From contig CAKPIG010000004.1 of the NCBI GenBank assembly GCA_934162255.1, positions 23,050 to 87,049 on the forward strand: a DNA stretch of 64,000 nt, given 5' to 3'. Numbering within the stretch: the stretch's first letter is position 1; each line of letters begins with the position of its first letter. Under the pieces are notes generated by a model. The model did not search any database and had not been told where the DNA came from. It saw only the letters and a list, made by a program, of their open reading frames with translations. Shown here one piece after another: positions 9,479 through 50,638 of this stretch. Made by a program: the position numbers and the translations under genes. Source of the DNA: an uncultured Clostridia bacterium (lineage in GTDB: Bacteria; Bacillota; Clostridia; TANB77; CAG-508).

Positions 9479-9507
9479 TTGATTTTACTATAGAAATGCA
9501 GTATAAT
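9479..9507 (+). promoter_or_regulatory. sigmaA-type promoter of alaS (TTGATT, 17 nt spacer, TATAAT)
   Basis: TTGATT at 9479-9484, an exact 17-nt spacer, TATAAT at 9502-9507. It lies downstream of the 9433-9458 terminator and about 34 nt upstream of the alaS ATG. Confidence 0.65.
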
Positions 9508-9540
9508 CATATACGAATTTATAGAAAAGGGAGATCAACT

Positions 9541-32039: not shown

Positions 32040-34793
32040 ATGAAGAATAAAAATCTTTTGGATAAAGTACTAGTTGCTGTAATTATTACAATGATAGTAT
32101 TATTTAAAAATACTATTATAAATAATAAAGTAAAAGCAATTTCAACTGAAGCAAATGAACATGTAAGAGTATTTATAGAAGAGAGTGTAGATGAAAAAAC
32201 ATATTATAGTAATACAAACAAAATTAATATATCAGGATGGAGAATGGCAGATTTTTCTAACAATCAAATAAAGGCTTATGTTGATGAAAAAGAATTAAGT
32301 AATGAACAAATTATTAATTATGAAAGAAAAGATGTAATTGCAGTAATAAAGAATTGTGGAACAGCAGAACAAAATCCAACACCAGGATTTGTTGTTAATA
32401 TGAATATAGAAAATTTATCAGAAGGAAAACATACATTAAAGGTTGATTTTATAACAGAAAAAGAACAAGTTATTGAAACATATGAAAGTAATTTTTATAT
32501 AGATAGACAATTATATGTAGAATATGAAGGACATGTTCAAAATGTAGGATGGCAAAATTATGTAAAAAATGGTCAAACTGCTGGAACAGAAGGACATAGT
32601 TTAAGGTTAGAAGCTTTTAAAGCAAAATTAGTGAATGCACCAAATGGAGTAAAAATTAAATATAGAGCAGTTACAGAAAATGGCAATTGGGGAGATTGGC
32701 AAGAAGATGGGCAAATATCAGGTACAGTAGGAAAAAGCTTAAAACTAGAGGCAATACAGATTAAGCTAGAAGGAACAGAAGAGTATTCAATATCATATAG
32801 AGCACATATACAAAATTTAGGATGGCAAGAGTGGAAAAAAGATGCTGAAACAGCAGGTTTTGAGGATAGAAGAATAGAAGCTATACAAATAAAAATAGTA
32901 AATAAAGAAAAACATGTAAGAATGTTTATTGAAACCACAGCTCAAAATAAAACGTATTATAGTGATACAAAAGAAGTTAGTATATCAGGATGGAGAATGG
33001 CAGACTTTTCGGGCAGTCAAATAAAAGCTTATTTGGATGATAAAGAAATAGAAAGTAAAAATATTACAAATTACGAAAGAAAAGATGTAATAGCAGTAAT
33101 AAAAAATTGTGGAACAGCAAAACAAAATCCAAAACCGGGTTTTTCAGTTAATGTTAATATAGAAGATTTGAAACAGGGGAAACATACTATAAAATTAAAT
33201 ATAGTAACTCAAACCAAAAATGAGGTTATTTCTACATATATGTGTGAATTTTATGTAGATAGAAAATTACATATAGCATATTCTGGACATGTTCAAAATG
33301 TAGGATGGCAAGATTCAGTTTATGATGGACAAATTGCAGGAATAGAAAATAGTGGGTTAAGATTAGAAGCTCTTAAGATTGATATAATAAACTCAGATCA
33401 AAATGCTAAAATAAAATATAAAACATATGTAGAAGGAAAAGGTTGGGAGGATTGGAAAAACGATGGAGAAATAGCAGGGACAGTAGGCAAAAAATTAAAA
33501 ACAGAAGCTATTAAAATAATACTAGAAAATACAAATGAATATAGTGTGGAATATCAGACATTTATAGAAGGTATAGGATGGCAAGAGTGGGCAAATGATG
33601 GAGAAACGTCTGGTAAAATAGATCAAAGAATAGAAGCAATAAAAATAAGAATAATACCTAAAATAACAGAAAAAACATGGATATATTTAGATACTCAAGT
33701 TTCATCTAAGGTTGGGAATGAACCACTTAAAATGATTGGGTGGAACATGACAAATGTAGAAAACTCAAAACTTCAAGTACTTGTTAATGGAAAAGTGGTT
33801 GACACTGATATAAAAAGAACTAAAAGAGATGATGTAATACAAGCAATAAAAGGTTATGGAGGAGAAGAAAAAAATCCTAATCCTGGATTTGAATTTACAA
33901 TCAATTTTGAAAATATGGAACTAGGAAATAAAAATATAAAAATTCAGTGTATCAATTCTAATAACAAAGTAATAGGTGAAAGTGAAATAAATGTTAATGT
34001 AGTACAAAAAATGGAATATTCAGAAGGAGTTTATGGTGCAACTGGATTAAGACTTGATGGAAGAGGAGGCAGTGATTTAACATATTTAAAATATGGAAAT
34101 GGAGAAAATGTATTTTTTGCTACATTTGCAATACATGGATATGAAGATAAATGGGCAAAAGATGGATATGAATTAGTGGATATAGCAAAACAATTTTACA
34201 ATAGATTGTTATCAGACAAAGATTATGACTTGGCAGAAAAATGGACTATATATATTTTCCCTGGAGTTAATATGGATGGTTTAACAAATGGATGGACTAA
34301 TAATGGACCAGGAAGAACTACAGTTTATAGTTTTGCACCTGGAAATAAAGGGGTAGACATGAATAGATGTTGGCAAGTAGGAAACTCATATCAAAGATTT
34401 ACTGATGATAGAAACTATAATGGAACATCTGGCTTTCAAGCATATGAGGCACGTTATTTAATGAATTTTATGCTAGAACATAAATCTAAAAAAGGTCAAA
34501 CATTAGTAGTGGATTTACATGGATGGACTCAGCAATTAATAGGAGACGAAAATATATGTTCATATTATGAAAAACAATTTCCAGAAAATAATAAATCATC
34601 TGTTGGAAGATATGGAAATGGTTATATGATAAATTGGGCTAGAAGTTATTTGGGATCAGCAGGAAGACCAGCAAAATCAGCATTAATAGAATTGCCAAAG
34701 CAAAATGTTACAGGACATCAATCTGTAGTTAACATGAAATTTGCAGATAGATATATAACATCAACTTTAGAAATGTTAAAAACAATTATTTAA
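32040..34793 (+). CDS. secreted cell-wall protein: signal peptide, three copies of an Ig-like module, two triplets of ChW (clostridial hydrophobic W) repeats and a C-terminal M14 zinc-carboxypeptidase-like domain
   Basis: N-terminal signal/TM. ChW consensus GHVQNVGWQ.W...G..AGT.G...RLEA.KI.L repeated six times. The C-terminal domain has HGYE (H-x-x-E) and DLHGW zinc-ligand motifs like gamma-D-Glu-DAP peptidase I / M14. Confidence 0.8.
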   Translation: MKNKNLLDKVLVAVIITMIVLFKNTIINNKVKAISTEANEHVRVFIEESVDEKTYYSNTNKINISGWRMADFSNNQIKAYVDEKELSNEQIINYERKDVIAVIKNCGTAEQNPTPGFVVNMNIENLSEGKHTLKVDFITEKEQVIETYESNFYIDRQLYVEYEGHVQNVGWQNYVKNGQTAGTEGHSLRLEAFKAKLVNAPNGVKIKYRAVTENGNWGDWQEDGQISGTVGKSLKLEAIQIKLEGTEEYSISYRAHIQNLGWQEWKKDAETAGFEDRRIEAIQIKIVNKEKHVRMFIETTAQNKTYYSDTKEVSISGWRMADFSGSQIKAYLDDKEIESKNITNYERKDVIAVIKNCGTAKQNPKPGFSVNVNIEDLKQGKHTIKLNIVTQTKNEVISTYMCEFYVDRKLHIAYSGHVQNVGWQDSVYDGQIAGIENSGLRLEALKIDIINSDQNAKIKYKTYVEGKGWEDWKNDGEIAGTVGKKLKTEAIKIILENTNEYSVEYQTFIEGIGWQEWANDGETSGKIDQRIEAIKIRIIPKITEKTWIYLDTQVSSKVGNEPLKMIGWNMTNVENSKLQVLVNGKVVDTDIKRTKRDDVIQAIKGYGGEEKNPNPGFEFTINFENMELGNKNIKIQCINSNNKVIGESEINVNVVQKMEYSEGVYGATGLRLDGRGGSDLTYLKYGNGENVFFATFAIHGYEDKWAKDGYELVDIAKQFYNRLLSDKDYDLAEKWTIYIFPGVNMDGLTNGWTNNGPGRTTVYSFAPGNKGVDMNRCWQVGNSYQRFTDDRNYNGTSGFQAYEARYLMNFMLEHKSKKGQTLVVDLHGWTQQLIGDENICSYYEKQFPENNKSSVGRYGNGYMINWARSYLGSAGRPAKSALIELPKQNVTGHQSVVNMKFADRYITSTLEMLKTII
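32190..33650 (+). repeat. internal tandem duplication (about 750 bp, about 80% nt identity) of the Ig-like plus 3xChW module inside the wall-protein gene; a third partial copy of the Ig-like module lies at about 33660-33960
   Basis: Segments beginning near 32205 and 32950 align nearly base for base. Both carry ATATCAGGATGGAGAATGGCAGA and GTAATAAA-AATTGTGGAACAGCA-AACAAAATCCA. Confidence 0.8.
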
Positions 34794-34838: not shown

Positions 34839-35582
34839 ATGAAGAATAAAATTAAATTAATAAGTTTAATTGCAACTATAATCGTTGCAATTTTAGTACT
34901 TACTATAGTAGTAGTAAGTAAAAAAAGTGAAAAACCAGTATCAAATGAAGGATATGAAGAAAATATAAATACTGAGGAAGAAAAAACAAAAGAAACAGAA
35001 GTTGAAGATGTAGAAGAATTAAAGGAGCAAACTGGAAAGACTGGTGCAGCAGAATTATATGAAATACAAAATGGATATGGAGATGTAAAAGTTGCAACAA
35101 TAAAATCTAGTATAAAATATAAAGTTGCATTTTCTGGAATGATAAAAGGAAGTAAACCAGAAATAGAGGAATTAGATAATATTATAGAAAAGGAACATCC
35201 TAAAAATAACGGGATATGGATATTTGAAAAAGACAGAAATACAGTACTAGACTATTTAAAAAGTGTGACATTATCACAATATTCAGTTAATCAAGATGGA
35301 TATTTAAAAATAGATAATAAAGAACAACAAAATGATTATGATAAGAAAATCGAAAAAGCAATAAATAGTGATAAATTGTATGTTTTAAATGTATCTAGTA
35401 AGTATTATATTGTAGATGAAATAACAGGAGAGATATTAGATTATTCATTTGAAGATATGGACGAATATCAAACATATGAGTATTCTGAGGATAATAATAA
35501 ATTGATTATTTTTATAACAGAAAACAAGAAAAATCAATTAAATAAAGAGACAATTATTAAGAGTGTTGTAGATTTATTTTAA
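34839..35582 (+). CDS. membrane-anchored hypothetical protein (N-terminal TM, extracytoplasmic domain of about 210 aa)
   Basis: Clean ORF with a hydrophobic N-terminus LISLIATIIVAILVLTIVVV. It lies inside the glycan locus. Confidence 0.6.
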   Translation: MKNKIKLISLIATIIVAILVLTIVVVSKKSEKPVSNEGYEENINTEEEKTKETEVEDVEELKEQTGKTGAAELYEIQNGYGDVKVATIKSSIKYKVAFSGMIKGSKPEIEELDNIIEKEHPKNNGIWIFEKDRNTVLDYLKSVTLSQYSVNQDGYLKIDNKEQQNDYDKKIEKAINSDKLYVLNVSSKYYIVDEITGEILDYSFEDMDEYQTYEYSEDNNKLIIFITENKKNQLNKETIIKSVVDLF

Positions 35583-35656: not shown

Positions 35657-36451
35657 ATGGAATTTATAAAAACGCTATGGAAAAATAAAAGATTAGCATG
35701 GCAACTAGGAAAAAATGATTTTAAAAATAGATTTGCAAATACAAGTTTAGGAAGTATATGGGGATTTCTACAACCATTTGTATTTATGATGATGTATATA
35801 ATTGTATTTCAATATATATTTAAACAGACAGGACCAGAAGGAGCACCATATGTTGTATGGTTTATGCCAGGAATGGCTATGTGGATGACAATAAACGATG
35901 GAATTGTAGGGGCGAGTAATGCAATAAGAGGATACAGTTATTTAGTAAAAAAAGTAGTATTTCCTGTTGATATAATACCAGTAATATCATTATTAGCGAA
36001 TTCATTTGTTTCATTATTTTTAATTACAATAGCAACAATAGTTTGTATTATTTTTAAATTTATACCAAATGTTTTTAAACTAATATACATGATTTTTGCA
36101 GTATATATTTTCTTGATTTCTATTACTAGGTTTACCTCGGCATTAGCAACATTAGTACCTGACTTTTCTAATCTTTTAGGAATTATAATGCAAATAGGAA
36201 TGTGGCTTACACCAGTAGTTTGGGATTTGAGTATGATTGCAGAACATCATACAATATCAAGAGTTATGAAATGTTTGCCTTTCACATATTTAGTAACAGG
36301 ATTTAGAGAGAGTTTTATGGATACAGGAAACATAGTAACAGGAAGCCATGGGATCTACACACTAATATTTTGGGTAATAACAATAGTAATATTCATATGG
36401 GGAAACTATATATTTAAAAAAAGCAAAAAAGATTTTGCGGATGTATTATAA
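35657..36451 (+). CDS. ABC-2 type polysaccharide/teichoic-acid export permease (Wzm/TagG-like)
   Basis: 264 aa with six predicted TM helices. ABC-2 family features. Paired with an ATPase 1 kb downstream. Confidence 0.85.
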   Translation: MEFIKTLWKNKRLAWQLGKNDFKNRFANTSLGSIWGFLQPFVFMMMYIIVFQYIFKQTGPEGAPYVVWFMPGMAMWMTINDGIVGASNAIRGYSYLVKKVVFPVDIIPVISLLANSFVSLFLITIATIVCIIFKFIPNVFKLIYMIFAVYIFLISITRFTSALATLVPDFSNLLGIIMQIGMWLTPVVWDLSMIAEHHTISRVMKCLPFTYLVTGFRESFMDTGNIVTGSHGIYTLIFWVITIVIFIWGNYIFKKSKKDFADVL

Positions 36452-36465
36452 AGTGAGGAAAGAAA

Positions 36466-37461
36466 ATGAATAATGAAACTATAGATATATTACTTCCAAC
36501 ATACAATGGTGAAAAATATTTAAAAGAACAATTGGATAGTATATTAAACCAAACATATAAAAATATTAGATTAATAATCTCAGATGATTGCTCAAAAGAT
36601 ACTACACCGCAAATATTAGAAGAATATAAAAATAAAGATAGTAGAATAGAAGTATATTTTCAAAAAGAAAATATGGGAGTAGTAAAAGGAATAGAATTTC
36701 TTTTAAAAAAAGTAGAAAGCAATTATTATATGTTAGCAGACCAAGATGATGTATGGTTACCAATAAAAGTTGAAAAATCAATAGAAACTTTAAAAAATGA
36801 AAATGCTGATTTAGTATTTGGTGATTTAGAAGTTGTAGATGAAAATTTGAAAACTATATATCCATCATTTGGGGACTTTATGCTATTAAATAAAAAAATA
36901 CATAAATATATAAAAAGTTATAAAATGAACTATTTGTATAATTGTGTAACTGGCTGCACAATATTATCAAAAAAAGAATTTATTGAAAAAATATTACCAA
37001 TACCAAAAACTTCTAAATATTTAATACATGACCACTGGATAAGCCTTATAACATCGTTAAATGGAAAACTTGTATATATGCCAGAAAAATATATAAAATA
37101 TAGACAACATGGAAATAACCAAATAGGAACAGAAAAAATATCACATGGATTTAAAGAATTAGAACAAGTAAGAGAATTATTCATAAATGTGAAATTGGGA
37201 GTTTTTGGAACATATGTAAATAATAAAGAAAAATTTCCAAAGAAATTACAAAAGCAAAATCAAGAAGCATTTAATTATTTTAATGATATAAAAAATAAAA
37301 AAAACTTTAATTTTAAAGGATGGAGAATATTTCATCAATTATATAAAACAGAAAATGGATTATATTATATAGAAAATTTTGTTATTATGAATATGCCATT
37401 TATAGGGAGAGTTTTATTTAAAATAAGATATAGAGTATTAAAATTGCTAAAAAGGAGATAA
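36466..37461 (+). CDS. family 2 glycosyltransferase
   Basis: IDILLPTYNGEKYLKEQLDSILNQTYKNIRLIISDDCSKD and a DxD-type ADQDD. Confidence 0.85.
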   Translation: MNNETIDILLPTYNGEKYLKEQLDSILNQTYKNIRLIISDDCSKDTTPQILEEYKNKDSRIEVYFQKENMGVVKGIEFLLKKVESNYYMLADQDDVWLPIKVEKSIETLKNENADLVFGDLEVVDENLKTIYPSFGDFMLLNKKIHKYIKSYKMNYLYNCVTGCTILSKKEFIEKILPIPKTSKYLIHDHWISLITSLNGKLVYMPEKYIKYRQHGNNQIGTEKISHGFKELEQVRELFINVKLGVFGTYVNNKEKFPKKLQKQNQEAFNYFNDIKNKKNFNFKGWRIFHQLYKTENGLYYIENFVIMNMPFIGRVLFKIRYRVLKLLKRR

Positions 37462-37469
37462 AACAAAAT

Positions 37470-38831
37470 ATGGAGAAAAAAACAGCAAATTCATCAGAAG
37501 TAGTATTAAAAATAGAAGGACTTTCAAAGGGATATAAGATGTTTGCTAGGAAGAAGGATAGAATAATAGAAACATTATTTCCAATGGTAGAAAGACATGG
37601 GATTTTTGAAGCTATGCATGATTTTAATTTAGAAGTAAAAAAGGGAGAAGTATTAGGAGTACTAGGAAAAAACGGAGCTGGAAAATCTACATTACTAAAG
37701 ATGATTACAGGTGTTGTTACTCCAACTTCAGGAACAATTGAATCAAAAGGAAAAATTAGTTCTTTACTTGAATTAGGAACAGCATTTAACCAAGAACTAA
37801 CAGGCTATGAAAATATTTATCAGCATGGACAAGTCATGGGATTGACAAATGAAGAAATAAAAAGTAGGGAAAAAGAAATTATAGAATTTGCAGATATTGG
37901 AGAGCACTTATATCAACCTGTAAAAACATATTCATCAGGTATGTTTGCAAGACTTGCATTTGCATGTGCAATTAATGTTGATCCAGATATATTAATTGTT
38001 GATGAAGTATTATCTGTCGGAGATATGTCATTTCAATTAAAATGTTTTAAAAAATTTCAACAATTTAAAGAAAGCGGAAAAACAATACTATTTGTAACTC
38101 ATAGTATAACAGATGTTTTAAGAAATTGTACTAGAACAATAATAATAGATGCAGGTAGAAAAATATTTGATGGAGATGTAAAAGAAGGTGTAGAAAAATA
38201 TAAAAAAATAATAGTAGGTTTAGACGAAAAGCAAAGCAAAACAGGACTTCAAACAGATAAACAAATACTTGAAGAAAATCCTAATTATCAAAGTAATGTA
38301 GAAGTAGAAGGAGAAGAATGGAAAAAGCATTTTAATGAAAATCCAAACTTGATTGATTATGGAAATGGGGCAGCACAGGTTATTGATTATGGAATGTTTG
38401 ATGAAAAAGGTAATTATATTTCTGTATTAGAAAACGACAAAACAGTAATTTTAAAATCGAAGATATTATTCAAACAAGACGTAAAAGACCCCATATTTAC
38501 AATGACAGTAAAAGATTTTAAAGGTTTAGAAATGGCAGGGACAAATACACTTATAGAAAAAGTTGCAACAGGAGAATATAAAAAAGGAGATGTTGTAACA
38601 GCTGAATTTAAACAAATAATAAATGTAGCTCCAGGAAAGTACACACTATCATTTAGTTGTACGCATTTTAATCATAAAGGAGAACTAGAAGTATTAAACA
38701 GAAAATATGATGCATTATTAATAGAAGTACTATCTACAAAAGATACAGTAGGATTAATGAGATTAGACTCTAAAATAAAAATAGAAAAAATAAATAGAGG
38801 CAAAGATGAAAAAGAAAAAAATAATATATAG
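37470..38831 (+). CDS. ABC transporter ATP-binding protein (Wzt/TagH-like) with a C-terminal glycan-terminus-binding beta-sandwich domain of about 200 aa
   Basis: Walker A GKNGAGKST, signature SSGMFARLAF, Walker B ILIVDE. 453 aa, about 200 aa longer than a bare NBD. The extra region is predicted beta-rich, like the Wzt C-terminal CBD. Confidence 0.85.
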   Translation: MEKKTANSSEVVLKIEGLSKGYKMFARKKDRIIETLFPMVERHGIFEAMHDFNLEVKKGEVLGVLGKNGAGKSTLLKMITGVVTPTSGTIESKGKISSLLELGTAFNQELTGYENIYQHGQVMGLTNEEIKSREKEIIEFADIGEHLYQPVKTYSSGMFARLAFACAINVDPDILIVDEVLSVGDMSFQLKCFKKFQQFKESGKTILFVTHSITDVLRNCTRTIIIDAGRKIFDGDVKEGVEKYKKIIVGLDEKQSKTGLQTDKQILEENPNYQSNVEVEGEEWKKHFNENPNLIDYGNGAAQVIDYGMFDEKGNYISVLENDKTVILKSKILFKQDVKDPIFTMTVKDFKGLEMAGTNTLIEKVATGEYKKGDVVTAEFKQIINVAPGKYTLSFSCTHFNHKGELEVLNRKYDALLIEVLSTKDTVGLMRLDSKIKIEKINRGKDEKEKNNI

Positions 38832-39705
38832 TGGTTTAATAATTATAATAATACTTTTTATAATAACATTTATATATAATTATAATATAAAAAATAAAAT
38901 GAACACAACTCTAGAACAACTACAAAATAATGGAAAAAGTCAAATGATGGGATACATTATAAAAACAGACAACAATAAAGTTATAGTTATAGATGGAGGA
39001 ACATCAGATGATACAACAAATTTGGTAAATAAAATAAACGAATATACTGGAAGAGTTGATTATTGGTTTATTACACATCCACATAGAGACCATGCTACAT
39101 GCTTTATAGACATTGTAAATAACTATAATATAGATATAGGAAAAGTATATGTAACAGTTAATGATGAAGAATGGTATAAAGAACATGGAGAAGGAAGAGA
39201 TGAGGAATGTATTAGATTTTTAAATACATTAAAAGAAGAAAAAATCGCTAATAAAGTAGAAGAAGTATATCTAAATGAAGAAATACAAATAGATAATATA
39301 AAATGTGAGATATTAGGAATTAAAAATCCAGAAATAACTATTAACTCAGTAAATAATTCAAGTATGGTAATAAAAATGACAACTAAGAACAACAGTATAT
39401 TATTTTTAGGGGATACTGGTGCTGAAAGTGGAAGTAAACTATTAGAAAATCAATCAGAGAAATTAAAAGTAAATATACTACAAATGGCACATCATGGACA
39501 AAAGGGTGTTACCAAAGAAGTATATAACTTTATAAAACCTCAAATTTGTTTATGGCCAACACCAGATTGGTTATGGATAAATGACGCTGGTAATGGAGAA
39601 GATTCAGGTCCATGGAAAACAAAAGAAACAAGACAATGGATAGAGGAATTAAATGTAAAAAACAATATTATAGAAAAAGATGGTAATATAAAAATTTCAA
39701 TTTAA
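38806..39705 (+). CDS. membrane-anchored MBL-fold metallo-hydrolase
   Basis: N-terminal TM. The HxHxDH motif ITHPHRDHA and a downstream MAHHGQ. Confidence 0.8.
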   Translation: MKKKKIIYSGLIIIIILFIITFIYNYNIKNKMNTTLEQLQNNGKSQMMGYIIKTDNNKVIVIDGGTSDDTTNLVNKINEYTGRVDYWFITHPHRDHATCFIDIVNNYNIDIGKVYVTVNDEEWYKEHGEGRDEECIRFLNTLKEEKIANKVEEVYLNEEIQIDNIKCEILGIKNPEITINSVNNSSMVIKMTTKNNSILFLGDTGAESGSKLLENQSEKLKVNILQMAHHGQKGVTKEVYNFIKPQICLWPTPDWLWINDAGNGEDSGPWKTKETRQWIEELNVKNNIIEKDGNIKISI

Positions 39706-39717
39706 GGAGGGAAAAAA

Positions 39718-41337
39718 ATGAAAATAGTTCAAAGTGCTAATATATTGAATTGGTATCCTTTCAAGGAAAATCAAAAAGTACTAAATATTGGAGAACAATT
39801 AGAAGAACTTACTAGATTGTTGGCTAATAAATGTTCTAGAGTTCAAAATGTTAACCAAATATCTGAAATTGACAATATAAATGAAAGATTTGACATAATA
39901 ACATTAATAGGCATAAATGAATATGAGAGAATTAACTTGAAATATGTAATCAAAAAATTAGAAAATAGTCTAGATGTTAATGGAAAGATATTAATGGCAA
40001 TAGATAATAAATTTGGGCTAAAATTTTGGGCAGGAAATCCCGAAAAAATATTAGACAAAAAATTTATTAGCCTAATTGGATATAATAATGAACCCGAAAA
40101 AATTGAAACATACACTAAAAAATATATCGAAAAAGTATTACAAGAGATGGGATATAATACAAGGTTTTATTATCCATTGCCAGATTATAAAGTACCTAAT
40201 GTAATATTTACAGATGAGCAATTACCAAAATATAATAGTATTGACAAATATAATCCTTATTATTCAGAAAAATCAGATATATTATTTAATGAAATTGATG
40301 TATTTAGAGAAATATTAAAAACGGATAAAGAAATGTTTGCATTTTTTACTAATTCATTTTTAGTAGAAATTACAAAAGGAGAATGTGACAAAACATATAA
40401 ATATATATCATTTAATAATATGAGAAAGCCCGAGTACCAATTAATAACAAAAATTGCAGATACTTATGTTGAAAAACAAATAGTAAATGAAAATGCTCAA
40501 AAACATTATGAAGACATTAAAAATAATATAATATATTTACAAAAAAATGGAGTAAATCTTGTAGATTATATAGATGGAAAAAACATAAAAAGTAAATATA
40601 TAGAACAAAAGTATTTATTAAACAATGTACTTACAGAAAAACTAGAACAAAATAAAATAGACGAATTTGAGAAAATTATTGAAAAATATATAAATGAAAT
40701 TAGTATAAATACATTTAAAATTGAAAACTATGAAGATACAGTTTTTGGAAAATATAATATAGAAACAGAAAATAAAGACATTATAAATAATTTGCACTTT
40801 ATGAAAAATGGTTTATGGGATATGACATTTAAAAACTGTTTTTTAATAGAAAATGAATTGTATTTTTTTGACCAAGAATGGAATGCAGAAAATCTACCTG
40901 TGGAATATATACTATATAGAGCAATATTCTATACAATTTCATTAAGAAGATTTATATCAATAGAAAAATTATTTGATAAATATAATTTAACAGCATATAT
41001 AGAATTATTTAAAAGGTTAGATGATAAAATACAAGCTGAGATTAGAGATGATGAGAGATGGAAATTTTATTCTCAAAATTATAATTTTAATATTGATGAA
41101 ACAAAACAAGAATTAAAAAATATACAACTAAGAAGTGATGAACAGCAAACAGAAATAAATAATTTAAATAAAAGATTTGAAGCACAACAACTTGAAAACA
41201 ATAATTTAAAAGAAGAAAATAAGCAATTAAAAGAAAAAATAAATAGTATAAATAAAGAAAAAGATAAACTTCAAACAGAAATAAACAGTACATTTTTCAA
41301 TAAGGTAAAAAGAAAAATAAAAAGAATTATAAAATAG
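39718..41337 (+). CDS. WbdD-like chain-terminator candidate: N-terminal class I methyltransferase-like domain, central protein-kinase-like/APH-like motifs, C-terminal coiled coil
   Basis: A motif I-like VLNIGEQLEELTRLLA. Kinase catalytic-loop-like NGLWDMTFKNCFLIENELYFFDQEW (D...N...D). A 90-aa C-terminal heptad-rich segment (NNLNKRFEAQQLENNNLKEENKQLKEKINSINKEKDKLQTEIN). Confidence 0.6.
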   Translation: MKIVQSANILNWYPFKENQKVLNIGEQLEELTRLLANKCSRVQNVNQISEIDNINERFDIITLIGINEYERINLKYVIKKLENSLDVNGKILMAIDNKFGLKFWAGNPEKILDKKFISLIGYNNEPEKIETYTKKYIEKVLQEMGYNTRFYYPLPDYKVPNVIFTDEQLPKYNSIDKYNPYYSEKSDILFNEIDVFREILKTDKEMFAFFTNSFLVEITKGECDKTYKYISFNNMRKPEYQLITKIADTYVEKQIVNENAQKHYEDIKNNIIYLQKNGVNLVDYIDGKNIKSKYIEQKYLLNNVLTEKLEQNKIDEFEKIIEKYINEISINTFKIENYEDTVFGKYNIETENKDIINNLHFMKNGLWDMTFKNCFLIENELYFFDQEWNAENLPVEYILYRAIFYTISLRRFISIEKLFDKYNLTAYIELFKRLDDKIQAEIRDDERWKFYSQNYNFNIDETKQELKNIQLRSDEQQTEINNLNKRFEAQQLENNNLKEENKQLKEKINSINKEKDKLQTEINSTFFNKVKRKIKRIIK

Positions 41338-41352
41338 AAAGGATGTTTATAT

Positions 41353-43467
41353 ATGAGTAAGAAAATTGATATATATAAGAATCAAAAGAAAAAATTAAAT
41401 ATAGAAAACCCTAAAAAGGTAAGTGTTATAATTCCTAATTATAATTATGCTAATTATATTATAGAGAGAATAGATTCAATATTAATGCAAACTTACCCAA
41501 TATATGAATTAATAATATTAGACGATTGCTCTACAGATAATAGTGTACAAGTTATAAATGAAAAAATAAAAAAAATAAAAAATGAACATCCTGAAATAAA
41601 AGTAAAATTTATTGTTAATGAGAAAAATAGTGGGGGATGTGTATTTAAACAATGGAAAAAAGGATTTGATATTGCAACTGGAGATTATGTATGGATTGCA
41701 GAAGCAGATGATTCAGCAGAGAATGATTTTGTTGAAGAGTTAATAAAACCATTTGATGATCCAGAAATGGCATTATCATATTGTGAATCTGCTAAAATTG
41801 ATGGAGAAAATAACCTTATTCGCTCAAGATGCGATGATTGGTATGATATGTGTAGAACTGGTGAATGGAATAAATCTTATATTTGGACAGGAAAAGAAGA
41901 AATAATAAATCATTTAAGTGTAACAAATACTATATTAAATGTATCAAGTGTAATGTGGAAAAAACAAGATTATTCAGAGATATTTGAAAAAGCAGGGGAA
42001 TTTAGAGTAGCTGGAGATTGGTATATTTATTATAATGTATTAAGAAACGGAAAAATAAGTTGGAATACTAAAGCATTAAACTATTATAGAAAACATGGAA
42101 GTTCCGTATGTACTGACATAAAAGCAGAAATAGAATATGGAGAAATTTGCAGAATACAAGATGAAATATCAAGTTTATATGAATTGCCAGAAGAAATTAA
42201 GAAAAAACAGCAAATGAGAAGAGACTTAATGCAAGCATCATTACCACCAAAAGATAATGGAAAGAAAAAAATAGCTTGGGTAATACCACACCCCGGTAAA
42301 GGTTCAGGAGGGCATAGAACAATTATACAAAATGTAAATGCCTTAATAAGAGCAGGTTATGAATGTGATTTATTTTTTGAAGAAGATGGTGTTTCAACAT
42401 CTGAAATAGTAAGACAAAAAATAAATGACTGGTATGAACCATGTACTGCAGGAGTGTATGTGGGATTTGATATGAAAAAAGATTATGATTTGTTATTTGC
42501 TACAGGATGGCAGACTATAGAATTTGTAAGAAAATTATCAGCAAAGAAAAAAGCATATTTTATACAAGACTATGAGCCATGGTTTTTTCCAATGGGAGAC
42601 CAATATCTAATTACAGAAAATTCATATAGATATGGATTTTTACCTGTAACAATTGGAAAATGGTTATCTCATAAAATGAAAGCAGAATTTAACCAACCAG
42701 CAGAATATTTTCCATTTGGGGCTGATTTAAATACATATAAACCACTAAAAAATGTAAAAAAGGAAAATGCAGTATGCTATGTATATCAACCAGAAAAACC
42801 AAGAAGATGTGATTATATAGGATTAAAAGCATTAAAAATATTAAAAGCAATGAAGCCTGATATACAAATATATTTATATGGTTCAAATATACCAGCATCT
42901 TTTGAATTTGAATGCAAAAACTTAAATATAATTCCAATCAAGCAATGTAATGAATTATATAATAAGTGTAAAGTTGGATTATGTATGAGTGCATCAAATC
43001 CATCAAGAATACCATTTGAAATGATGGCAGCAGGACTACCAGTGGTAGAATTATATAAAGAAAACAATATATATGACTTACCAGATGAAGGTGTATTATT
43101 AGCACAACCAACACCAGAAGCAATAGCAAGTGCAATGTCATATATAATTGACAATCCAGATGTTGCAAAAAAAATGTCTGAGTTTGGCAAAGAATTTATG
43201 AAATCATACCCATTAGAAGAAGGATATAACTATTTCTTAAAAGCTGTAAAAGATATGTTAGAAACAGATTATAATAATTTACCAGAAATAGAAAAATTAT
43301 ATAAAAAAGAAGCTTTTTTAGCAAGTGAAGAAGCAATAAAAATTTCACAAGAATTAGCTCAAACACAGCCTATATATAAAGACGAACATGGAAAAATTTA
43401 CAGATTTTTAAGAAGAGGAAAAAGAAAAATAAAAAGTGTATTAGAAAAAATGGGGATAAAGAAGTAA
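41353..43467 (+). CDS. two-domain glycosyltransferase (N-terminal GT2 plus C-terminal GT4/GT1-like), WbdA-type polymerising enzyme candidate
   Basis: VSVIIPNYNYANYIIERIDSILMQTYPIYELIILDDCSTDNS (GT2) with the DxD-type AEADD. The C-terminal half has a GT-B-like E-x7-E region (FEMMAAGLPVVE). 704 aa. Confidence 0.8.
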   Translation: MSKKIDIYKNQKKKLNIENPKKVSVIIPNYNYANYIIERIDSILMQTYPIYELIILDDCSTDNSVQVINEKIKKIKNEHPEIKVKFIVNEKNSGGCVFKQWKKGFDIATGDYVWIAEADDSAENDFVEELIKPFDDPEMALSYCESAKIDGENNLIRSRCDDWYDMCRTGEWNKSYIWTGKEEIINHLSVTNTILNVSSVMWKKQDYSEIFEKAGEFRVAGDWYIYYNVLRNGKISWNTKALNYYRKHGSSVCTDIKAEIEYGEICRIQDEISSLYELPEEIKKKQQMRRDLMQASLPPKDNGKKKIAWVIPHPGKGSGGHRTIIQNVNALIRAGYECDLFFEEDGVSTSEIVRQKINDWYEPCTAGVYVGFDMKKDYDLLFATGWQTIEFVRKLSAKKKAYFIQDYEPWFFPMGDQYLITENSYRYGFLPVTIGKWLSHKMKAEFNQPAEYFPFGADLNTYKPLKNVKKENAVCYVYQPEKPRRCDYIGLKALKILKAMKPDIQIYLYGSNIPASFEFECKNLNIIPIKQCNELYNKCKVGLCMSASNPSRIPFEMMAAGLPVVELYKENNIYDLPDEGVLLAQPTPEAIASAMSYIIDNPDVAKKMSEFGKEFMKSYPLEEGYNYFLKAVKDMLETDYNNLPEIEKLYKKEAFLASEEAIKISQELAQTQPIYKDEHGKIYRFLRRGKRKIKSVLEKMGIKK

Positions 43468-43486: not shown

Positions 43487-45181
43487 ATGGAATCTCTAAT
43501 AAGGAAGATGAAAAAGGTTTTAAAGGCAATAAACATTTCAAATATAAAGTCTGTATTAAGATATATAAAAAATAATGGATTTAATGGATTATATTCAACT
43601 TGTATTAATAAAATAAGATTTGGAAAAATCATTTTAGATGAATATGCAACTTGGATAGCAAACAATGAGCCAAGTAATGAAGAGCTAGAAAGGCAAAAAG
43701 AATATAAATCATGCCAAAATTTGAAGTTTGAAATTATATGTAATGATAATGAAAAGCTTATAAAAAGTATAGAAGAACAAACATATAAAAATTATCAAAT
43801 TTCTGTATTAGAAAAAGATAATATTCAAAATATTGTTGAAAAATCTAAGAGTGACTATATTGTACTTATAGGACAAGATATTGAATTAATGCCATTCACA
43901 TTATACGAACTTGTAAAATCAATTGAATATAGAGATAGTATATTAATATATTCAGATAATGATAAATTAATAAACGGCAAAAGGATAGAACCACATTTTA
44001 AACCTGGATTTGCTAGAGATACAATAGTTTCTCAAAATTATATTGAAGGTTTTATTGCAGTAAAAACTACATTTTTAAAAGTGCATAATGAAATTTTAGA
44101 AAATTTAAATAAAAATATAATATATGATATCGTATTACAAATTAGTGAAAAAACGAGAAAAATAGAACATATACAAAAAGTTCTATATCATAAGACTACA
44201 GAACAGATAAATATAGATACTAGTGATGAAAAAAATATAATAGAAAAACATTTGCAAAGAATGAATTTAGAATATGATAGCATACAAGATGGTATGTTTA
44301 AAGGACAGTATAAAATTAATTATAAAATACAAGGGAATCCCTTAATTTCACTAGTAATACCTAATATGGACCATGTGGACGATTTGGATAAATTACTAAA
44401 CTCTTTGAAAAAATCTACATATTCAAATTATGAGGTAATAATTGTAGAAAATAATAGTAAAAACAAAGAAACCTTTGAATATTATGAGAAAATAACAAAT
44501 GAAGATAAAAGAATAAAAGTAGTAAAATTTGAAATAAATTATTTTAATTATTCTGCAATCGTAAATTATGGAGTAGAATGTGCAAATGGCGAATATATAG
44601 TAATGTTAAATAATGACATAGAGTTTATAACTGCAGATTGGATGGAGCAAATGCTTATGTATGTTCAAAGACCAGATGTTGGAATATGTGGTGCAAAATT
44701 ATATTTCCCAGATAAAACAATACAACATGCAGGAGTAACAATAGGAACAAGAGGATTAGCAGGACATAGAAATAGAGAAATTTCTGAAAAAGACTTTAAA
44801 AAAGATGATTATATAAATATAGTGCAAGATCTAAGTGCTGTAACAGCGGCATGTTTTATGGTAAGAAAGCAATTATACATAGATATGTTAGGATTTGACG
44901 AAAAATTAGCAGTAGCATTTAATGATGTTGATTTTTGTTTAAAAGTTAGAACAGCAAAATATTTAATAGTATACAATCCATTTGTAGAGGCATATCATTA
45001 TGAATCTAAATCTAGAGGGGAAGACACAGAAAACGAAGAAAAGCAAAAAAGATTTGCAAAAGAATATGAACTATTTGTAAAAAGATGGGCTAAAGTAATT
45101 GCAAAAGGAGACCCTTATTATAATAAAAATTACAGATTAGATACCGATTTACCGAAGATTAATTATAATAAGATAAATTAA
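43487..45181 (+). CDS. glycosyltransferase with a C-terminal GT2 domain and an N-terminal accessory domain
   Basis: ISLVIPNMDHVDDLDKLLNSLKKSTYSNYEVIIVENNS and MLNNDIEF (DxD-like). 564 aa. Confidence 0.8.
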   Translation: MESLIRKMKKVLKAINISNIKSVLRYIKNNGFNGLYSTCINKIRFGKIILDEYATWIANNEPSNEELERQKEYKSCQNLKFEIICNDNEKLIKSIEEQTYKNYQISVLEKDNIQNIVEKSKSDYIVLIGQDIELMPFTLYELVKSIEYRDSILIYSDNDKLINGKRIEPHFKPGFARDTIVSQNYIEGFIAVKTTFLKVHNEILENLNKNIIYDIVLQISEKTRKIEHIQKVLYHKTTEQINIDTSDEKNIIEKHLQRMNLEYDSIQDGMFKGQYKINYKIQGNPLISLVIPNMDHVDDLDKLLNSLKKSTYSNYEVIIVENNSKNKETFEYYEKITNEDKRIKVVKFEINYFNYSAIVNYGVECANGEYIVMLNNDIEFITADWMEQMLMYVQRPDVGICGAKLYFPDKTIQHAGVTIGTRGLAGHRNREISEKDFKKDDYINIVQDLSAVTAACFMVRKQLYIDMLGFDEKLAVAFNDVDFCLKVRTAKYLIVYNPFVEAYHYESKSRGEDTENEEKQKRFAKEYELFVKRWAKVIAKGDPYYNKNYRLDTDLPKINYNKIN

Positions 45182-45207: not shown

Positions 45208-46788
45208 ATGGAACAAAAATCAAATGAGATGATAGAAATAAAAAGCATAGCAAAAAAAATAAAGGATATATATAATAAAATAAAATATCCAGTTGAATTT
45301 ATAATTATTCTTATATTCTTTATATGTGTATATAATTTGATTACAACAAAGGCATATGAAGGATATTGGTCAAAAAAAATATTGATACAAACAATAGTAC
45401 CAACAATTTTAGCATTTGCATCATTAATATATAATTGTATACAAGACAAACACAAAATAGAGAATATGTTCTTAAATTTTGCTATACCTGTTGGGATATC
45501 ATTTATAGTATTTATGATACCAACTTACACACCAGATGCAAGCTCACATTTATGGAGAGCCTATGAAATTTCTGAAGGCACATTAATAACAAAAATAGAT
45601 GAAAATGGAGAGGCAAAAACGACAGTACCAGAAATAATGTCAATAAATAGAGAAACAGTATTAACAAAATATAATGTTTTAAATGAATTGTTAGACTCTG
45701 AAGAAGCTAAAGACTATAATAAAACAACACAAGTTGACTCACCATCAAAAGGATATGCTTTTGTATTTTTTATAGGATATGCAATAGGATTATTTGCAGC
45801 AAGACTACTATCTTTAAATATATTTGTAGGATTATTGTTAGCAAGGTTGGTAAACTTTATAATTGTTTTAATATTAGGATATTATGCAATAAAAAAGATT
45901 CCATTTGGAAAAATATTATTAACAACATATCTTATGATACCTATGATGATGCAACAAGCAACAGCTTTTTCTGCAGATAGTTTAATGAATGCAACAATTA
46001 TTTTATTTATTTCATATGCATTATATTTAGCATTTAAGAAAGAAGAGATATTAAAATATGAAAAAATTATATTTTTAATATTATCTGCATTTGTAGGATT
46101 GTCTAAAATTACATATCTTCCTTTAATAGGAATAGCATTAATAATTCCAAAACACAAAAAAGAAATGCCCAAAAAAGAAATAATAATTTTGGCAGTATTA
46201 ACACTAGTTATTTGTTGTGGAAGCATGTTAGTGTTAAATATATGTACTAGAGGATATACAAATGAAAGTGCTGAGAAATATTTAGAAAGTGCCGGAGTAA
46301 ATTCAAGCGAACAATTATCAGGAATAATATCCAATCCATTAAATTACTTAAAAGTATTAGATAATGATTTTAAAGTAAATGGAGAATTTTATACATTTAA
46401 TTTTATTGGACAATATATGGGATGGCTATCTATAACAGTACCAGTAGGCTATATAATTTTATATATAATAATATTATTAGCATCAATATTTATAGAGAAT
46501 AATAAACAGGTATTAGACTGGAAAGAAAAAACTTGGATGGTAGTATTGGCATTAGGAATGGATATATTAGTTGTAACTGGTTTATATTTGGAATGGACAG
46601 GAGTTGGAAAAATGTCGGTTGCAGGTGTGCAGGGAAGATATTTTTTACCAACGACAATATTATTACTATTAAGTATATGCAAAAAAGAAAATTATGTTAA
46701 AATAAAATGCCCTAATGTCGTTGTACCAGCAGTTTCACTATGTGTAAATATGATGTTTATAAATAAAGTTATATTATTCTTTATATAG
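45208..46788 (+). CDS. polytopic integral membrane protein, GT-C-like (ArnT/PMT/YfhO-type) putative extracytoplasmic glycosyltransferase or polymerase
   Basis: 526 aa with about 12 predicted TM helices and large extracytoplasmic loops. It is adjacent to the GT2 plus DUF2304 pair. Confidence 0.6.
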   Translation: MEQKSNEMIEIKSIAKKIKDIYNKIKYPVEFIIILIFFICVYNLITTKAYEGYWSKKILIQTIVPTILAFASLIYNCIQDKHKIENMFLNFAIPVGISFIVFMIPTYTPDASSHLWRAYEISEGTLITKIDENGEAKTTVPEIMSINRETVLTKYNVLNELLDSEEAKDYNKTTQVDSPSKGYAFVFFIGYAIGLFAARLLSLNIFVGLLLARLVNFIIVLILGYYAIKKIPFGKILLTTYLMIPMMMQQATAFSADSLMNATIILFISYALYLAFKKEEILKYEKIIFLILSAFVGLSKITYLPLIGIALIIPKHKKEMPKKEIIILAVLTLVICCGSMLVLNICTRGYTNESAEKYLESAGVNSSEQLSGIISNPLNYLKVLDNDFKVNGEFYTFNFIGQYMGWLSITVPVGYIILYIIILLASIFIENNKQVLDWKEKTWMVVLALGMDILVVTGLYLEWTGVGKMSVAGVQGRYFLPTTILLLLSICKKENYVKIKCPNVVVPAVSLCVNMMFINKVILFFI

Positions 46789-46811: not shown

Positions 46812-47531
46812 ATGATGAAAATATTATTAATATTACCAGCTTATAATGAACAAGAGAATATATTGCAAACAGTAAATAAAATAAAAGAGTATAGCAATGA
46901 ATTAGAGTATATTGTTATAAATGATGGTTCGACCGATAATACAGAACAAATATTAGCACAAAACAATATAAATCATATAAAATTAGTAAACAATTTAGGG
47001 ATAGGAGGAGCTGTACAAACAGGCTATAAATATGCCTATGAAAATAATTATGATATTGCAATTCAATTTGATGGAGATGGACAGCATGATGTAACATTTG
47101 TGCCTAAAATATGTCAGCCATTAATAGATGGACAAGCAGATATGTGTATAGGAACAAGATATTTAGATAAGTCATCAAGTGAATTTCAATCAACATTTAT
47201 GAGAAGACTTGGAGCAAATATAATTTCAGTATTCATAAAATTAATGACTAGAACAAAAATAACAGACCCAACGTCAGGTTTTAGAGCTGCAAATAAGAAA
47301 GTAATTGAAGAATTTGCACAAAACTATCCTACAGAATATCCAGAGCCAGAATCAACAGTATCTTTACTTGTAAATGGTTATAAAGTAAAAGAAGAACCTG
47401 TAAGCATGAATGAAAGAAAAGGTGGAGTATCTTCTATAAGATTGTGGAAGACAATAGATTATATGGTAAAAGTAGTATTATCAATTATTATAGATAGTAT
47501 TAGTTTTAGAAGAAAAAGGAGGAAAAAATAG
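46812..47531 (+). CDS. polyprenol-phosphate glycosyltransferase (GT2, DPM1/GtrB-like) lacking the C-terminal TM region
   Basis: ILLILPAYNEQENILQTVNKIKEYSNELEYIVINDGSTDNT and FDGDGQHD (DxD). Confidence 0.85.
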   Translation: MMKILLILPAYNEQENILQTVNKIKEYSNELEYIVINDGSTDNTEQILAQNNINHIKLVNNLGIGGAVQTGYKYAYENNYDIAIQFDGDGQHDVTFVPKICQPLIDGQADMCIGTRYLDKSSSEFQSTFMRRLGANIISVFIKLMTRTKITDPTSGFRAANKKVIEEFAQNYPTEYPEPESTVSLLVNGYKVKEEPVSMNERKGGVSSIRLWKTIDYMVKVVLSIIIDSISFRRKRRKK

Positions 47532-48945: not shown

Positions 48946-49392
48946 ATGGATAAGATAAAAACTATATATCTAAAATATAAAGAGATAATAAATTATTTAA
49001 TATTTGGAGTATTAGCAACAATAATATCATTAGTGACATATTATGTTTGTGTTTATACAATTTTAAACCCTGAAAATGCAGTACAATTACAAATTGCTAA
49101 TATGATTTCATGGATTGCAAGTGTAATATTTGCATATTTTACTAATAGAAAGTTTGTATTTGAAAGCAAAGAAAAAAATAAATTAAAAGAGGCAAGCAAA
49201 TTTGTAACAGCAAGAATAGTAACACTATTAATAGATATGTTGGTAATGTTTTTAGGAGTAACAATATTAAAACTTAATGATAAATTTATAAAAGTAATAT
49301 CACAAATAGTAGTTATTGTGTCAAATTATTTATTGAGTAAGATAATTGTATTCAATGGGAGAGAAAATGGAAAAAGAAAACGTACAATTTAG
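48946..49392 (+). CDS. GtrA family membrane protein (lipid-linked sugar translocase component)
   Basis: 148 aa with 4 TM helices. GtrA-like N-terminal YLIFGVLATIISL. Confidence 0.8.
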   Translation: MDKIKTIYLKYKEIINYLIFGVLATIISLVTYYVCVYTILNPENAVQLQIANMISWIASVIFAYFTNRKFVFESKEKNKLKEASKFVTARIVTLLIDMLVMFLGVTILKLNDKFIKVISQIVVIVSNYLLSKIIVFNGRENGKRKRTI

Positions 49393-50638
49393 AAAAAATT
49401 TTATATGGAATATAATAGGAACAGGATTTAGTGCATTCAATTCTTTATTTTTTATGATAGTAGTAACAAGAATAAATGGAGTTAATGAAGCAGGAATATT
49501 TACACTTGCATTTTCAACAGCATGTATATTATATATGATAGGTATATATGCTGGTAGAGTATATCAAGTAACAGAAAATGATTCAGAAATAAGTAATAAA
49601 GATTATATTATAAATAGATTTATAACATGTGGTTTAACTTTAATATTGGTAATTACATTTACTTTAATTAGACAATATGACATATACAAATCTAGTATAT
49701 TTATAATTCTAGCTATTTATAAGTCGCTGGAAGCTTTTAGTGAAGTATTGTATGGAATCTTACAAAAAAATAATATGTTAGAAAAAGTAGGAAAATCGGC
49801 TTTTTTTAAAGCAATAATTGGAATTATTATTTTTGTAGTGATAGATATTATAACCAAAAAAATGTTAATTTCATGTATTTCATTAGTAGTAGTTAATTTA
49901 ATTATAATACTATTTTATGATACTTTTAATATCAAACAATTTATAAGTAAAGATGAAACTATAAATAAAAAAAGTATTTTAAGAATATTTAGAAATGGCT
50001 TTTTTACATTTGCAATAGCTTTTTTAGGAGTTTATTTAACAAATGCTCAAAAGTATGCTATTGATAATTTTCTAACAGAAAATATACAAGCAATATTTGG
50101 AATAATAATAATGCCAGCAACAGTTATGGGATTACTAGCCCAATTTATAATACATCCATTTTTAAACCAATTATTTAATAACTACAATAATAAAGAATAT
50201 GAAGAAATTAAAAAAATGATATTTAAAATAATGATATTTGTGATAGGAGTAGGAGGAATATGTTGTATTTTAGGATATTTATTAGGAACACCAGTATTAG
50301 GACTTTTATACAATATAGATTTACACGAATATAAATTAGCTTTATTAATAATATTAATGGGAGCAACATTATATACAATTGCTAATATAATATCATCAAT
50401 TTTAGTAACAATGAGATATACATTTATACAGTTTATATTAAGTTTAATAGTAGTTTTAATAGAATATATAATATCTAGTTTGCTAGTACAAAAATTTGAA
50501 ATTATGGGAGCTACATATGCTTATTTAATAACAATGATAGTATATTGCATTACATATGTTATTATGGTATTTTTATTAATAAATAAAAAAATAAAAGAAG
50601 GAGAAAACAAAAATGAACATATTGTACACTCTAAATGA
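49364..50638 (+). CDS. MOP-superfamily polysaccharide flippase (Wzx-like)
   Basis: About 424 aa with 12-14 TM helices. The start is at 49364 after GGGAGAGAAA. Confidence 0.75.
   Translation, partial: KMEKENVQFRKNFIWNIIGTGFSAFNSLFFMIVVTRINGVNEAGIFTLAFSTACILYMIGIYAGRVYQVTENDSEISNKDYIINRFITCGLTLILVITFTLIRQYDIYKSSIFIILAIYKSLEAFSEVLYGILQKNNMLEKVGKSAFFKAIIGIIIFVVIDIITKKMLISCISLVVVNLIIILFYDTFNIKQFISKDETINKKSILRIFRNGFFTFAIAFLGVYLTNAQKYAIDNFLTENIQAIFGIIIMPATVMGLLAQFIIHPFLNQLFNNYNNKEYEEIKKMIFKIMIFVIGVGGICCILGYLLGTPVLGLLYNIDLHEYKLALLIILMGATLYTIANIISSILVTMRYTFIQFILSLIVVLIEYIISSLLVQKFEIMGATYAYLITMIVYCITYVIMVFLLINKKIKEGENKNEHIVHSK

Follow-up and report, generated by a model that had tools for sequence, protein, structure and literature searches.

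We analysed a 64,000-nucleotide stretch of DNA from an uncultured Clostridia bacterium (contig CAKPIG010000004.1, positions 23,050 to 87,049; the whole stretch is called the window below). One of its genes, encoding a protein of 539 residues, probably specifies the chain terminator of an ATP-binding cassette (ABC) transporter-dependent cell-wall polysaccharide pathway in this gut bacterium; the terminator would carry a coiled coil and act through a kinase only. Judged by sequence comparison, its real homologue is the N-terminal part of Klebsiella pneumoniae O7 ORF6 (ORF6-O7-N), a characterised methyltransferase-kinase chain terminator (PMC11231755, J Biol Chem 2024). What is known of how ABC-dependent glycan assembly ends its chains and controls their length comes almost entirely from Gram-negative O-antigens, and the ORF6-O7 orthologues described come from alpha- and gammaproteobacteria and cyanobacteria (PMC11231755). 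The O7-type methyltransferase-kinase terminator is here extended to uncultured gut Clostridia, with a kinase domain that has no Pfam or NCBIfam model. The protein is best described as a compact, stand-alone variant of the O7-type terminator, with an apparently decayed methyltransferase domain, in a Gram-positive-type Clostridia genome.

The open reading frame (ORF) starts with ATG, preceded at 8 nt by a strong ribosome-binding site, AGGAGGG. The gene before it ends, stop codon included, immediately ahead of this site, so the short N-terminus is genuine and a longer one is impossible. We found 628 homologues at E <= 1e-3 (candidates scored), showing that the ORF is conserved beyond chance; this conservation and the ribosome-binding site ruled out a gene-call artefact. 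Pfam and NCBIfam scans of the protein detected no methyltransferase and no kinase, only weak coiled-coil-type matches at residues 453-531. An AlphaFold2 (AF2) model of the whole protein, built on 55 homologues with a predicted local distance difference test score (pLDDT) of 80.8, showed three parts: a Rossmann-like domain (20-165), a central alpha/beta domain (200-455) that was predicted well, its pLDDT lying mostly above 90, and a single helix (459-538). The order methyltransferase-like, kinase-like, coiled coil, put forward in an initial annotation made from the sequence alone, was borne out by the AF2 models and Foldseek. Both strings on which that annotation relied were also found in the protein, VLNIGEQLEELTRLLA at residues 21-36 and NGLWDMTFKNCFLIENELYFFDQEW at residues 364-388, the latter yielding D368-x4-N373...D385.

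Homology to the O7 terminator was significant across the methyltransferase-like domain and the linker. A fragment of O7 ORF6 (the O7 row transcribed from SI Fig. 9 of PMC11231755) aligned by BLASTP with the window protein at 31% identity over 183 columns (E = 2e-18). The same fragment was 50% identical (E = 2e-97) to L081, a 1457-aa fusion protein recorded as 'glycosyltransferase', which we found by tblastn of plasmids on a Pseudomonas asturiensis plasmid; its gene directly follows those for an ABC-transporter permease and ATPase. The N-terminus of L081 in turn matched residues 32-258 of the window protein (BLASTP E = 3e-20), and hhalign of the window family profile against L081 gave a probability of 98.7%.

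Run against L081 as a lone sequence, neither a single-profile hidden Markov model nor hhalign extended beyond the first strands of the kinase domain. Single-sequence methods do not bridge the divergence of the kinase core, and a profile was needed to align the whole domain. When the L081 side was represented by a profile of 115 relatives, profile-profile hhalign covered the entire domain (228 columns, 97% probability, E = 1.2e-10). In this alignment G-x-x-D368-M-x-F-K-N373 falls on G-x-y-D-x-i-P-Q-N, and FFD385QEW falls on xIDkEW. Within D-x-i-P-Q-N the Asp is numbered D443 in L081 and D441 in O7, so that D368 is the counterpart of O7 D441 and the conserved catalytic Asp of the homologous kinase domain is present in the window protein. 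In O7, D441A abolishes phosphorylation of a rhamnose-terminated acceptor (PMC11231755).

The two proteins share the motifs FDxITLIG, [DE]N[KQ][FL]GLK[YF][FW]AG, PxPDYKxP, ANSFL, D-x4-N and [IF]DxEW. Each has a methyltransferase-like domain followed by a kinase domain of aminoglycoside phosphotransferase (APH)-type fold that matches no known kinase sequences, and then a coiled coil, C-terminal to the catalytic domains as in terminators of the ORF6-O7-N type. They also share a wzm/wzt neighbourhood, with glycosyltransferase family 2 (GT2) or rhamnosyltransferase-type modules adjacent or fused. Unlike O7 ORF6, which has 1414 residues, two GT2 modules and a reported Ig-like carbohydrate-binding module (CBM) in ORF6-O7-N (PMC11231755), the window protein stands alone and has no Ig-like CBM; it also lacks the N-terminal extension, the G-x-G-x-G loop, the β2 acid and the β3 segment, and is predicted to be kinase-only. 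Its host is a Gram-positive-type Clostridia bacterium rather than one of the proteobacterial or cyanobacterial hosts described so far.

We modelled the central domain separately (residues 186-458; pLDDT 86.6, mostly above 90 beyond about residue 235). A Foldseek search of the model against the PDB pointed to a kinase-like family: nearly all of the 50 best matches were protein-kinase-like enzymes, among them APH(2''), APH(3'), RIO1/2, Bud32, choline kinase, methylthioribose (MTR) kinase and JAK. Within these 50, the eukaryotic kinases JAK, Wee1 and EGFR ranked below the APH and RIO enzymes; APH(2''), APH(3'), AmiN, choline kinase and RIO/Bud32 were the best structural matches. A bilobal kinase fold was thus recovered, on weak Foldseek scores. 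APH-type enzymes have a D-x4-N catalytic loop with an hhD-x-E motif 12 residues later, an arrangement also seen in the window kinase. The PDB profile search found no sequence-profile similarity to APH/RIO-type kinases, and none of the PDB searches, whether with the single window sequence, a full-length family profile or a kinase-only profile, returned a kinase; all that came up was a marginal tRNA methyltransferase and chance matches. In contrast to APH/RIO-type enzymes, the window kinase is fused to a methyltransferase-like domain and a coiled coil and has His instead of Glu at a conserved helix position; its context is glycan assembly rather than antibiotic resistance. An antibiotic-resistance APH was ruled out by genomic context and gene fusions.

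The candidate catalytic residues of this domain are highly conserved. Residues K253, D368, N373 and D385 read K-D-N-D in 139 of 140 representatives of the family and R-D-N-D in the remaining one, irrespective of the state of the methyltransferase. Among 62 diverse genome-encoded relatives the only invariant central-domain residues were N212, D368, N373, D385, Q386 and E387. The D-x4-N...D segment, which the initial annotation had called catalytic-loop-like, is accordingly the invariant core of the kinase-like domain, and the loop, the metal-binding Asp and the ATP-binding Lys all have invariant or nearly invariant candidates. We assigned the putative catalytic, metal and ATP roles by spacing and secondary structure, K253 being the presumed β3 lysine.

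The N-terminal domain has the Rossmann-like alpha/beta fold of class I S-adenosylmethionine (SAM) methyltransferases. A Foldseek search of the whole AF2 model against the PDB returned only class I SAM methyltransferases (E from 2e-6, probability 1.0), and phmmer gave a marginal match to the tRNA methyltransferase 8k5l (E = 0.0017). The SAM-binding half appears decayed at the sequence level. The glycine loop of motif I and the acid at the end of β2, both typical of class I enzymes, are missing: motif I reads VLNIGEQLEE (core GEQLE) where relatives have VLEIGxGxGxIT, and the β2 region reads RVQNVNQIS where relatives have V..[VI]E, leaving nothing that corresponds to the β2 acid of canonical relatives (E112 in O7). 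A gap of about 23 residues takes out the β3 segment. The β2-β4 spacing is 18 residues, compared with 41 in canonical relatives, and the model has no strand between those at 41-45 and 58-63, giving six strands rather than seven. The BLASTP alignment with O7 shows the deletion of the ALEGSxRRAxIAAxRxxDL segment directly. Canonical relatives also keep an N-terminal extension of about 50 residues that the window protein lacks. Homologues at 55-60% identity do match Pfam methyltransferase models, whereas the window protein matches none. The initial annotation, reasoning from motif I, had guessed that this half may be inactive; the guess is strengthened by the additional loss of the β2 acid, the β3 segment and the N-terminal extension.

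A functional SAM site (an E/DxGxGxG loop and, in O7, Y28, Y66, G91, G93, E112 and Y158) could not be recognised by sequence in the window protein. Only G91 (= G25) and Y158 (= Y69) are still matched; O7 G93 and G95 are replaced by Q27 and E29, the E112 region and β3 segment are deleted, and the extension bearing Y28 is absent. Conservation is distributed unevenly over the domain. In the clade of the window protein, residues 20-95 are the least conserved (25-59% identity to relatives, excepting the closest relative at 83%) and residues 96-199 the most conserved (66-96%). The latter stretch, which comprises the C-terminal half of the methyltransferase-like domain and the linker and includes two loops of low AF2 confidence, has conserved positions at N97, G100, Y152, P155, I163 and E192, and the same motifs occur in ORF6-O7 orthologues. 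It is probably an acceptor- or partner-binding surface, although this is speculation.

Several observations weigh against a kinase-only terminator. The kinase-fold scores were weak (E = 4e-4 to 2e-2, TM-scores 0.25-0.46), and PDB profile searches with a full-length family profile or with a kinase-only profile of the 62 diverse relatives reached no solved kinase. The ATP-binding lysine is uncertain, as ORF6-O7 orthologues instead conserve a lysine one strand earlier, while K253 is invariant here. The residue in helix αC is His263 rather than the usual Glu. A methyltransferase encoded elsewhere in the genome may act in trans. Finally, the CBM of the window Wzt is 83-84% identical to the CBMs of loci whose terminators look methyltransferase-competent, with a GG[ND]xG motif I, the N-terminal extension and the β3 segment all kept; this would not be expected if the caps differ. 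We saw no clear relation between methyltransferase state and Wzt CBM divergence.

The CBM similarity would suit a bifunctional methyltransferase-kinase that binds SAM in a non-canonical way and makes a methyl-phosphate cap, as O7 ORF6 and WbdD-O9a do. Such an enzyme could draw on the retained Rossmann fold, on G25, D59 and Y69, and on the conserved DNKFG and FYYPLPDY motifs. We nevertheless consider it unlikely, given the two substitutions in the G-loop, the deletion of the ribose-binding acid (O7 E112) together with β3, and the absence of the extension with Y28. Residues 20-95 are moreover the fastest-evolving part of the protein, and several separate branches of the kinase tree show decay of this region, with deletions of differing size. 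For the kinase-only terminator the cap is predicted to be a phosphate rather than a methyl-phosphate, because the SAM-binding half is decayed; a scan of cluster genes turned up no second methyltransferase, and a phosphate-only cap is our best guess from the sequence. It would be feasible, since phosphorylation alone terminates chains in Escherichia coli O9a (PMC3482155).

The initial annotation had also compared the protein with WbdD, the terminator of E. coli O9a and K. pneumoniae O3 (PDB 4AZS; PMC3482155), and the family relationship that this comparison implies did not stand. Neither phmmer nor two profile searches of all PDB sequences returned a WbdD chain at E <= 10, and WbdD was not among the 50 best Foldseek matches of the whole model or of the central-domain model. 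The two proteins do share the order methyltransferase, kinase, coiled coil and membrane-associated C-terminus (the anchor being predicted in the window protein), with similar boundaries: 1-210, 211-459 and from 460 in WbdD, compared with 1-175, 200-455 and 459-539 here. The functional logic, the separate polymerase and the CBM on Wzt are also common to both systems. The WbdD kinase, however, is Src-like and of eukaryotic type (PMC3482155), whereas the window kinase resembles small-molecule kinases of the APH type and matches APH/RIO enzymes; the WbdD methyltransferase is active, while its counterpart here is decayed by sequence. ORF6-O7-N, to which the window protein is instead significantly homologous, has itself been described as unlike WbdD in sequence and predicted structure (PMC11231755). 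True membership of the WbdD family is thus hardly credible, and the comparison is an analogy rather than a family relationship. What remains of the proposal, a terminator that is probably kinase-only and caps by phosphorylation, is now better supported.

AF2 predicted one uninterrupted helix from residue 459 to 538. A single hydrophobic a/d heptad register runs from residue 456 to about 525 and is followed by the basic tail FFNKVKRKIKRIIK. The C-terminus had been described as heptad-rich over 90 residues; it is indeed helical and heptad-rich, but the length is closer to 80 residues. In relatives the distance from the TKQE motif to the C-terminus varies between 45 and 78 residues, and a TFxxKxKRKxK tail pattern is conserved. 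By analogy with WbdD, whose C-terminus is a membrane-associated helix (PMC11231755, PMC5082667), the basic tail may be a membrane anchor. If 67-80 residues are fully helical at about 1.5 Å each, the stalk would measure about 10 nm (about 100 Å), whereas the WbdD coiled coil is stated in a review to hold the head about 200 Å (about 20 nm) from the membrane.

A coiled coil and basic tail would suit a scaffold equally well, and the coil is short next to the 20 nm of WbdD. The protein could then phosphorylate internal residues of the glycan without terminating it, or organise a glycosyltransferase complex through its coiled coil. We regard this as improbable. The only characterised homologue is a terminator, CBM-bearing Wzt proteins accompany terminal-cap systems in the literature, and a Wzt_C module was found in 70 of 80 related loci; the invariant K-D-N-D residues also speak against a pure scaffold. 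A chain terminator agrees with the literature signature of polymerase-terminator systems, namely a coiled-coil protein with terminating activity and a CBM on Wzt.

The genomic locus fits this role. With a low GC content of about 26%, the window is chromosomal and includes housekeeping genes, and the terminator gene lies in a co-directional, tightly packed block that runs from wzm to a PpgS/GtrB-like GT2 gene, with overlapping ribosome-binding sites and stop codons (Table 1). The gene order and strand of the window recur in most of the 80 species-level related loci used for synteny counts, 71 of which encode a homologue of the Wzt nucleotide-binding domain. As in loci of ORF6-O7-N-type terminators, the transporter is an ABC exporter whose Wzt carries a CBM. 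The terminator function suggested initially is consistent with the Wzt bearing Wzt_C upstream, the GT2-WsaF protein downstream and the relatives with fused glycosyltransferases. The GT2-WsaF protein is likely the polymerase partner of the terminator. Its WsaF_N and WsaF_C domains (Pfam) recall the S-layer glycan of Geobacillus stearothermophilus, a Gram-positive, ABC-transporter-dependent system with WsaF-type glycosyltransferases and a capped non-reducing end. There, WsaE caps by direct O-methylation with an active methyltransferase fused to rhamnosyltransferases and is not known to contain a kinase.

From the computed folds, homology, invariant residues, synteny and gene fusions we infer an order of events in which the kinase activity, acceptor, cap chemistry, oligomerisation, membrane anchoring and ruler effect are all predicted. 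The polymer would be extended on a lipid carrier at the cytoplasmic face of the membrane, probably by the adjacent GT2-WsaF and GT2 proteins. The terminator would be anchored through its basic C-terminal tail and probably oligomerise via the coiled coil of about 65-80 residues, holding the N-terminal catalytic head about 10 nm off the membrane. As soon as a growing chain extends as far as the head, the kinase-like domain (K253, D368, N373, D385) would move a phosphate from ATP onto the non-reducing terminal sugar, and this phosphate would block further extension. By analogy with known systems, the capped end may then be recognised by the carbohydrate-binding module of Wzt, licensing export, and coil length may set chain length as a ruler; the short chains that the initial annotation expected from a short coil would likewise follow only by this analogy. 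The window protein would descend from bifunctional methyltransferase-kinase terminators of the O7 ORF6-N type, the conserved C-terminal half of its methyltransferase-like domain probably serving in acceptor or partner binding.

A profile search of a 50%-identity library returned 3821 representatives at E <= 1e-3, of which 803 reached E <= 1e-30; for the majority of the best 150, the alignment covered nearly all of the profile. Motif I was canonical (G-x-G-x-G) in 43 of 140 representatives, G-x-x-x-G in 44 and unrecognisable in 53. More than half of the last group (28/53) also lacked the N-terminal extension of about 50 residues and had a shortened β2-β4 region, like the window protein. Decay of the window type affects about a third of the family and apparently arose several times independently. 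A neighbour-joining tree of the kinase domain, which is indicative only, suggests the same: because decayed forms, with deletions of varied size, stand beside better-preserved forms in several branches, decay of the methyltransferase would have been repeated and independent. We tentatively propose, giving it slightly less than an even chance, that gut Clostridia harbour a large branch of the O7-type family that has escaped annotation, and that in this branch the methyltransferase was lost to decay again and again, each time independently, with the kinase left intact. If this is true, kinase-only terminators making bare phosphate caps would be common in Gram-positive cell-wall glycan assembly, and the surviving pseudo-methyltransferase half would have been repurposed as an acceptor- or polymerase-binding surface of the kinase. 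Natural variants of this predicted kinase-only kind would bear on whether phosphate alone suffices as a stop-and-export signal and on the role of the half of the methyltransferase domain that does not bind SAM.

Long relatives of 850-1850 aa carry GT2, WsaF, RgpF or WbsX modules behind the coiled coil (P0243, for example, has GT2 and WsaF modules there); terminator and polymerase-type enzymes are therefore fused in some genomes and adjacent in the window. Since no Pfam or NCBIfam model matches the window kinase domain, the terminator role is invisible to standard annotation, and recognising the kinase and terminator role in so large a family would improve the annotation of many polysaccharide loci. 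Those proteobacterial relatives that bear names (P0271-P0390; L081, 8650-13023) are recorded only as 'class I SAM-dependent methyltransferase', 'UbiG' or 'UbiG-like', or 'glycosyltransferase'; records of the close Clostridia relatives carry no source name.

The closest relatives of the window protein came from metagenome-assembled genomes of uncultured gut Clostridia. We compared three related loci (L001, L002 and L007) with the window, and the terminator proved to diverge much faster than its neighbours. The Wzt nucleotide-binding domain was 95-96% identical, Wzt_C 92-94% and the GT2-WsaF protein 93-94%, but the terminator only 70-71%. The SAM-binding half (residues 20-95) was the most divergent part of the terminator, at about 51-55% identity, and the kinase domain, at about 70%, was also well behind the neighbouring genes.

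Table 1. Features of the predicted terminator and of the surrounding glycan gene block. Residues are those of the 539-residue protein unless stated; loci are the 80 related loci.
Feature	Residues	Position in window	Strand	Basis
Terminator gene, predicted		39718..41337	+	539-aa ORF; decayed methyltransferase-like domain, kinase domain, coiled coil, basic tail
Class I methyltransferase-like Rossmann domain, SAM-binding half apparently decayed	1-175	39718..40242	+	Foldseek, phmmer, AF2
Motif I remnant VLNIGEQLEELTRLLA	21-36	39778..39825	+	Alignments; BLASTP with K. pneumoniae O7 ORF6 fragment
Best-conserved stretch (DNKFGLxFxAGNPE, FYYPLPDY, NEIDVFREILK)	96-199	40003..40314	+	Identity to relatives
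Protein-kinase-like (APH/RIO-type) domain, predicted glycan-terminus kinase	200-455	40315..41082	+	AF2, Foldseek, hhalign
K253 in VEK, candidate ATP-binding lysine	253	40474..40476	+	Near-invariant; on strand before long helix 258-276
GLWDMTFKNCF, catalytic-loop-like D368-x4-N373	365-375	40810..40842	+	D368, N373 invariant; profile alignment
FFDQEW, predicted metal-binding Asp motif (D385)	383-388	40864..40881	+	D385, Q386, E387 invariant in 62 relatives; IDkEW in proteobacterial profile
Coiled-coil stalk, about 67 residues	459-525	41092..41292	+	AF2 helix, heptad register, weak Pfam coiled-coil matches
Basic amphipathic tail, NSTFFNKVKRKIKRIIK region, putative membrane anchor	526-539	41293..41334	+	Conserved pattern; WbdD analogy
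wzm, ABC-2 permease of glycan exporter		35657..36451	+	Pfam ABC2_membrane E = 1e-13; 66/80 loci
GT2 between wzm and wzt		36466..37461	+	Pfam Glycos_transf_2 E = 6.5e-31; 65/80 loci
wzt, ABC ATPase with C-terminal carbohydrate-binding module		37470..38831	+	Pfam ABC_tran E = 2.4e-23; Wzt_C E = 2.5e-31
Wzt_C module	296-432 of Wzt	38355-38765	+	Homologue in 70/80 loci
Membrane-anchored metallo-beta-lactamase (MBL)-fold (ComEC-C-like) protein		38806..39705	+	Pfam Lactamase_B; NCBIfam ComEC_Rec2 partial; PDB 9ic4; 29/80 loci
Two-module glycosyltransferase, GT2 + WsaF-like GT-B		41353..43467	+	Glycos_transf_2 E = 1e-27, WsaF_C + WsaF_N; 57/80 loci
Second GT2 of conserved block		43487..45181	+	Pfam Glycos_transf_2 E = 9e-24; 68/80 loci
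DUF2142 polytopic membrane protein		45208-46788	+	
PpgS/GtrB-like GT2 (polyprenyl-phosphate glycosyl synthase)		46812-47531	+	

Other genes of the window were noted in passing. The MBL-fold protein directly upstream of the terminator has 299 aa and an N-terminal membrane anchor; its closest similarity is to the MBL domain at the C-terminus of ComEC. The gene begins within the last part of wzt, and its homologues usually occupy the same position; a role as an extracytoplasmic phosphoesterase that acts on the cap would be pure speculation. The DUF2142 and PpgS/GtrB-like pair looks like an extracytoplasmic side-branch glycosylation system of the type treated in PMC11127046. Just upstream of wzm lie genes for a 917-aa protein that combines six ChW repeats with an M14 carboxypeptidase domain (32040-34793, +) and for a 247-aa ORF with no family match (34839-35582, +); the two co-occur in 13-16 of the 80 related loci.

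Further downstream, envelope genes encode a sulfatase/lipoteichoic acid (LTA)-synthase-like protein (52734-54218, +), a GT8 glycosyltransferase (50613-51605, +) and a protein with a weak Wzx-like 'Polysacc_synt' flippase match (49346-50638, +). A second, flippase-dependent glycan pathway may exist beside the ABC-dependent one. Outside these envelope genes, the alanyl-tRNA synthetase ORF (9496-11292, +) is no longer than 598 aa, and a separate ORF of 223 aa comes after it (11722-12393, +); the gene may be split or frameshifted, or this may reflect an assembly error.

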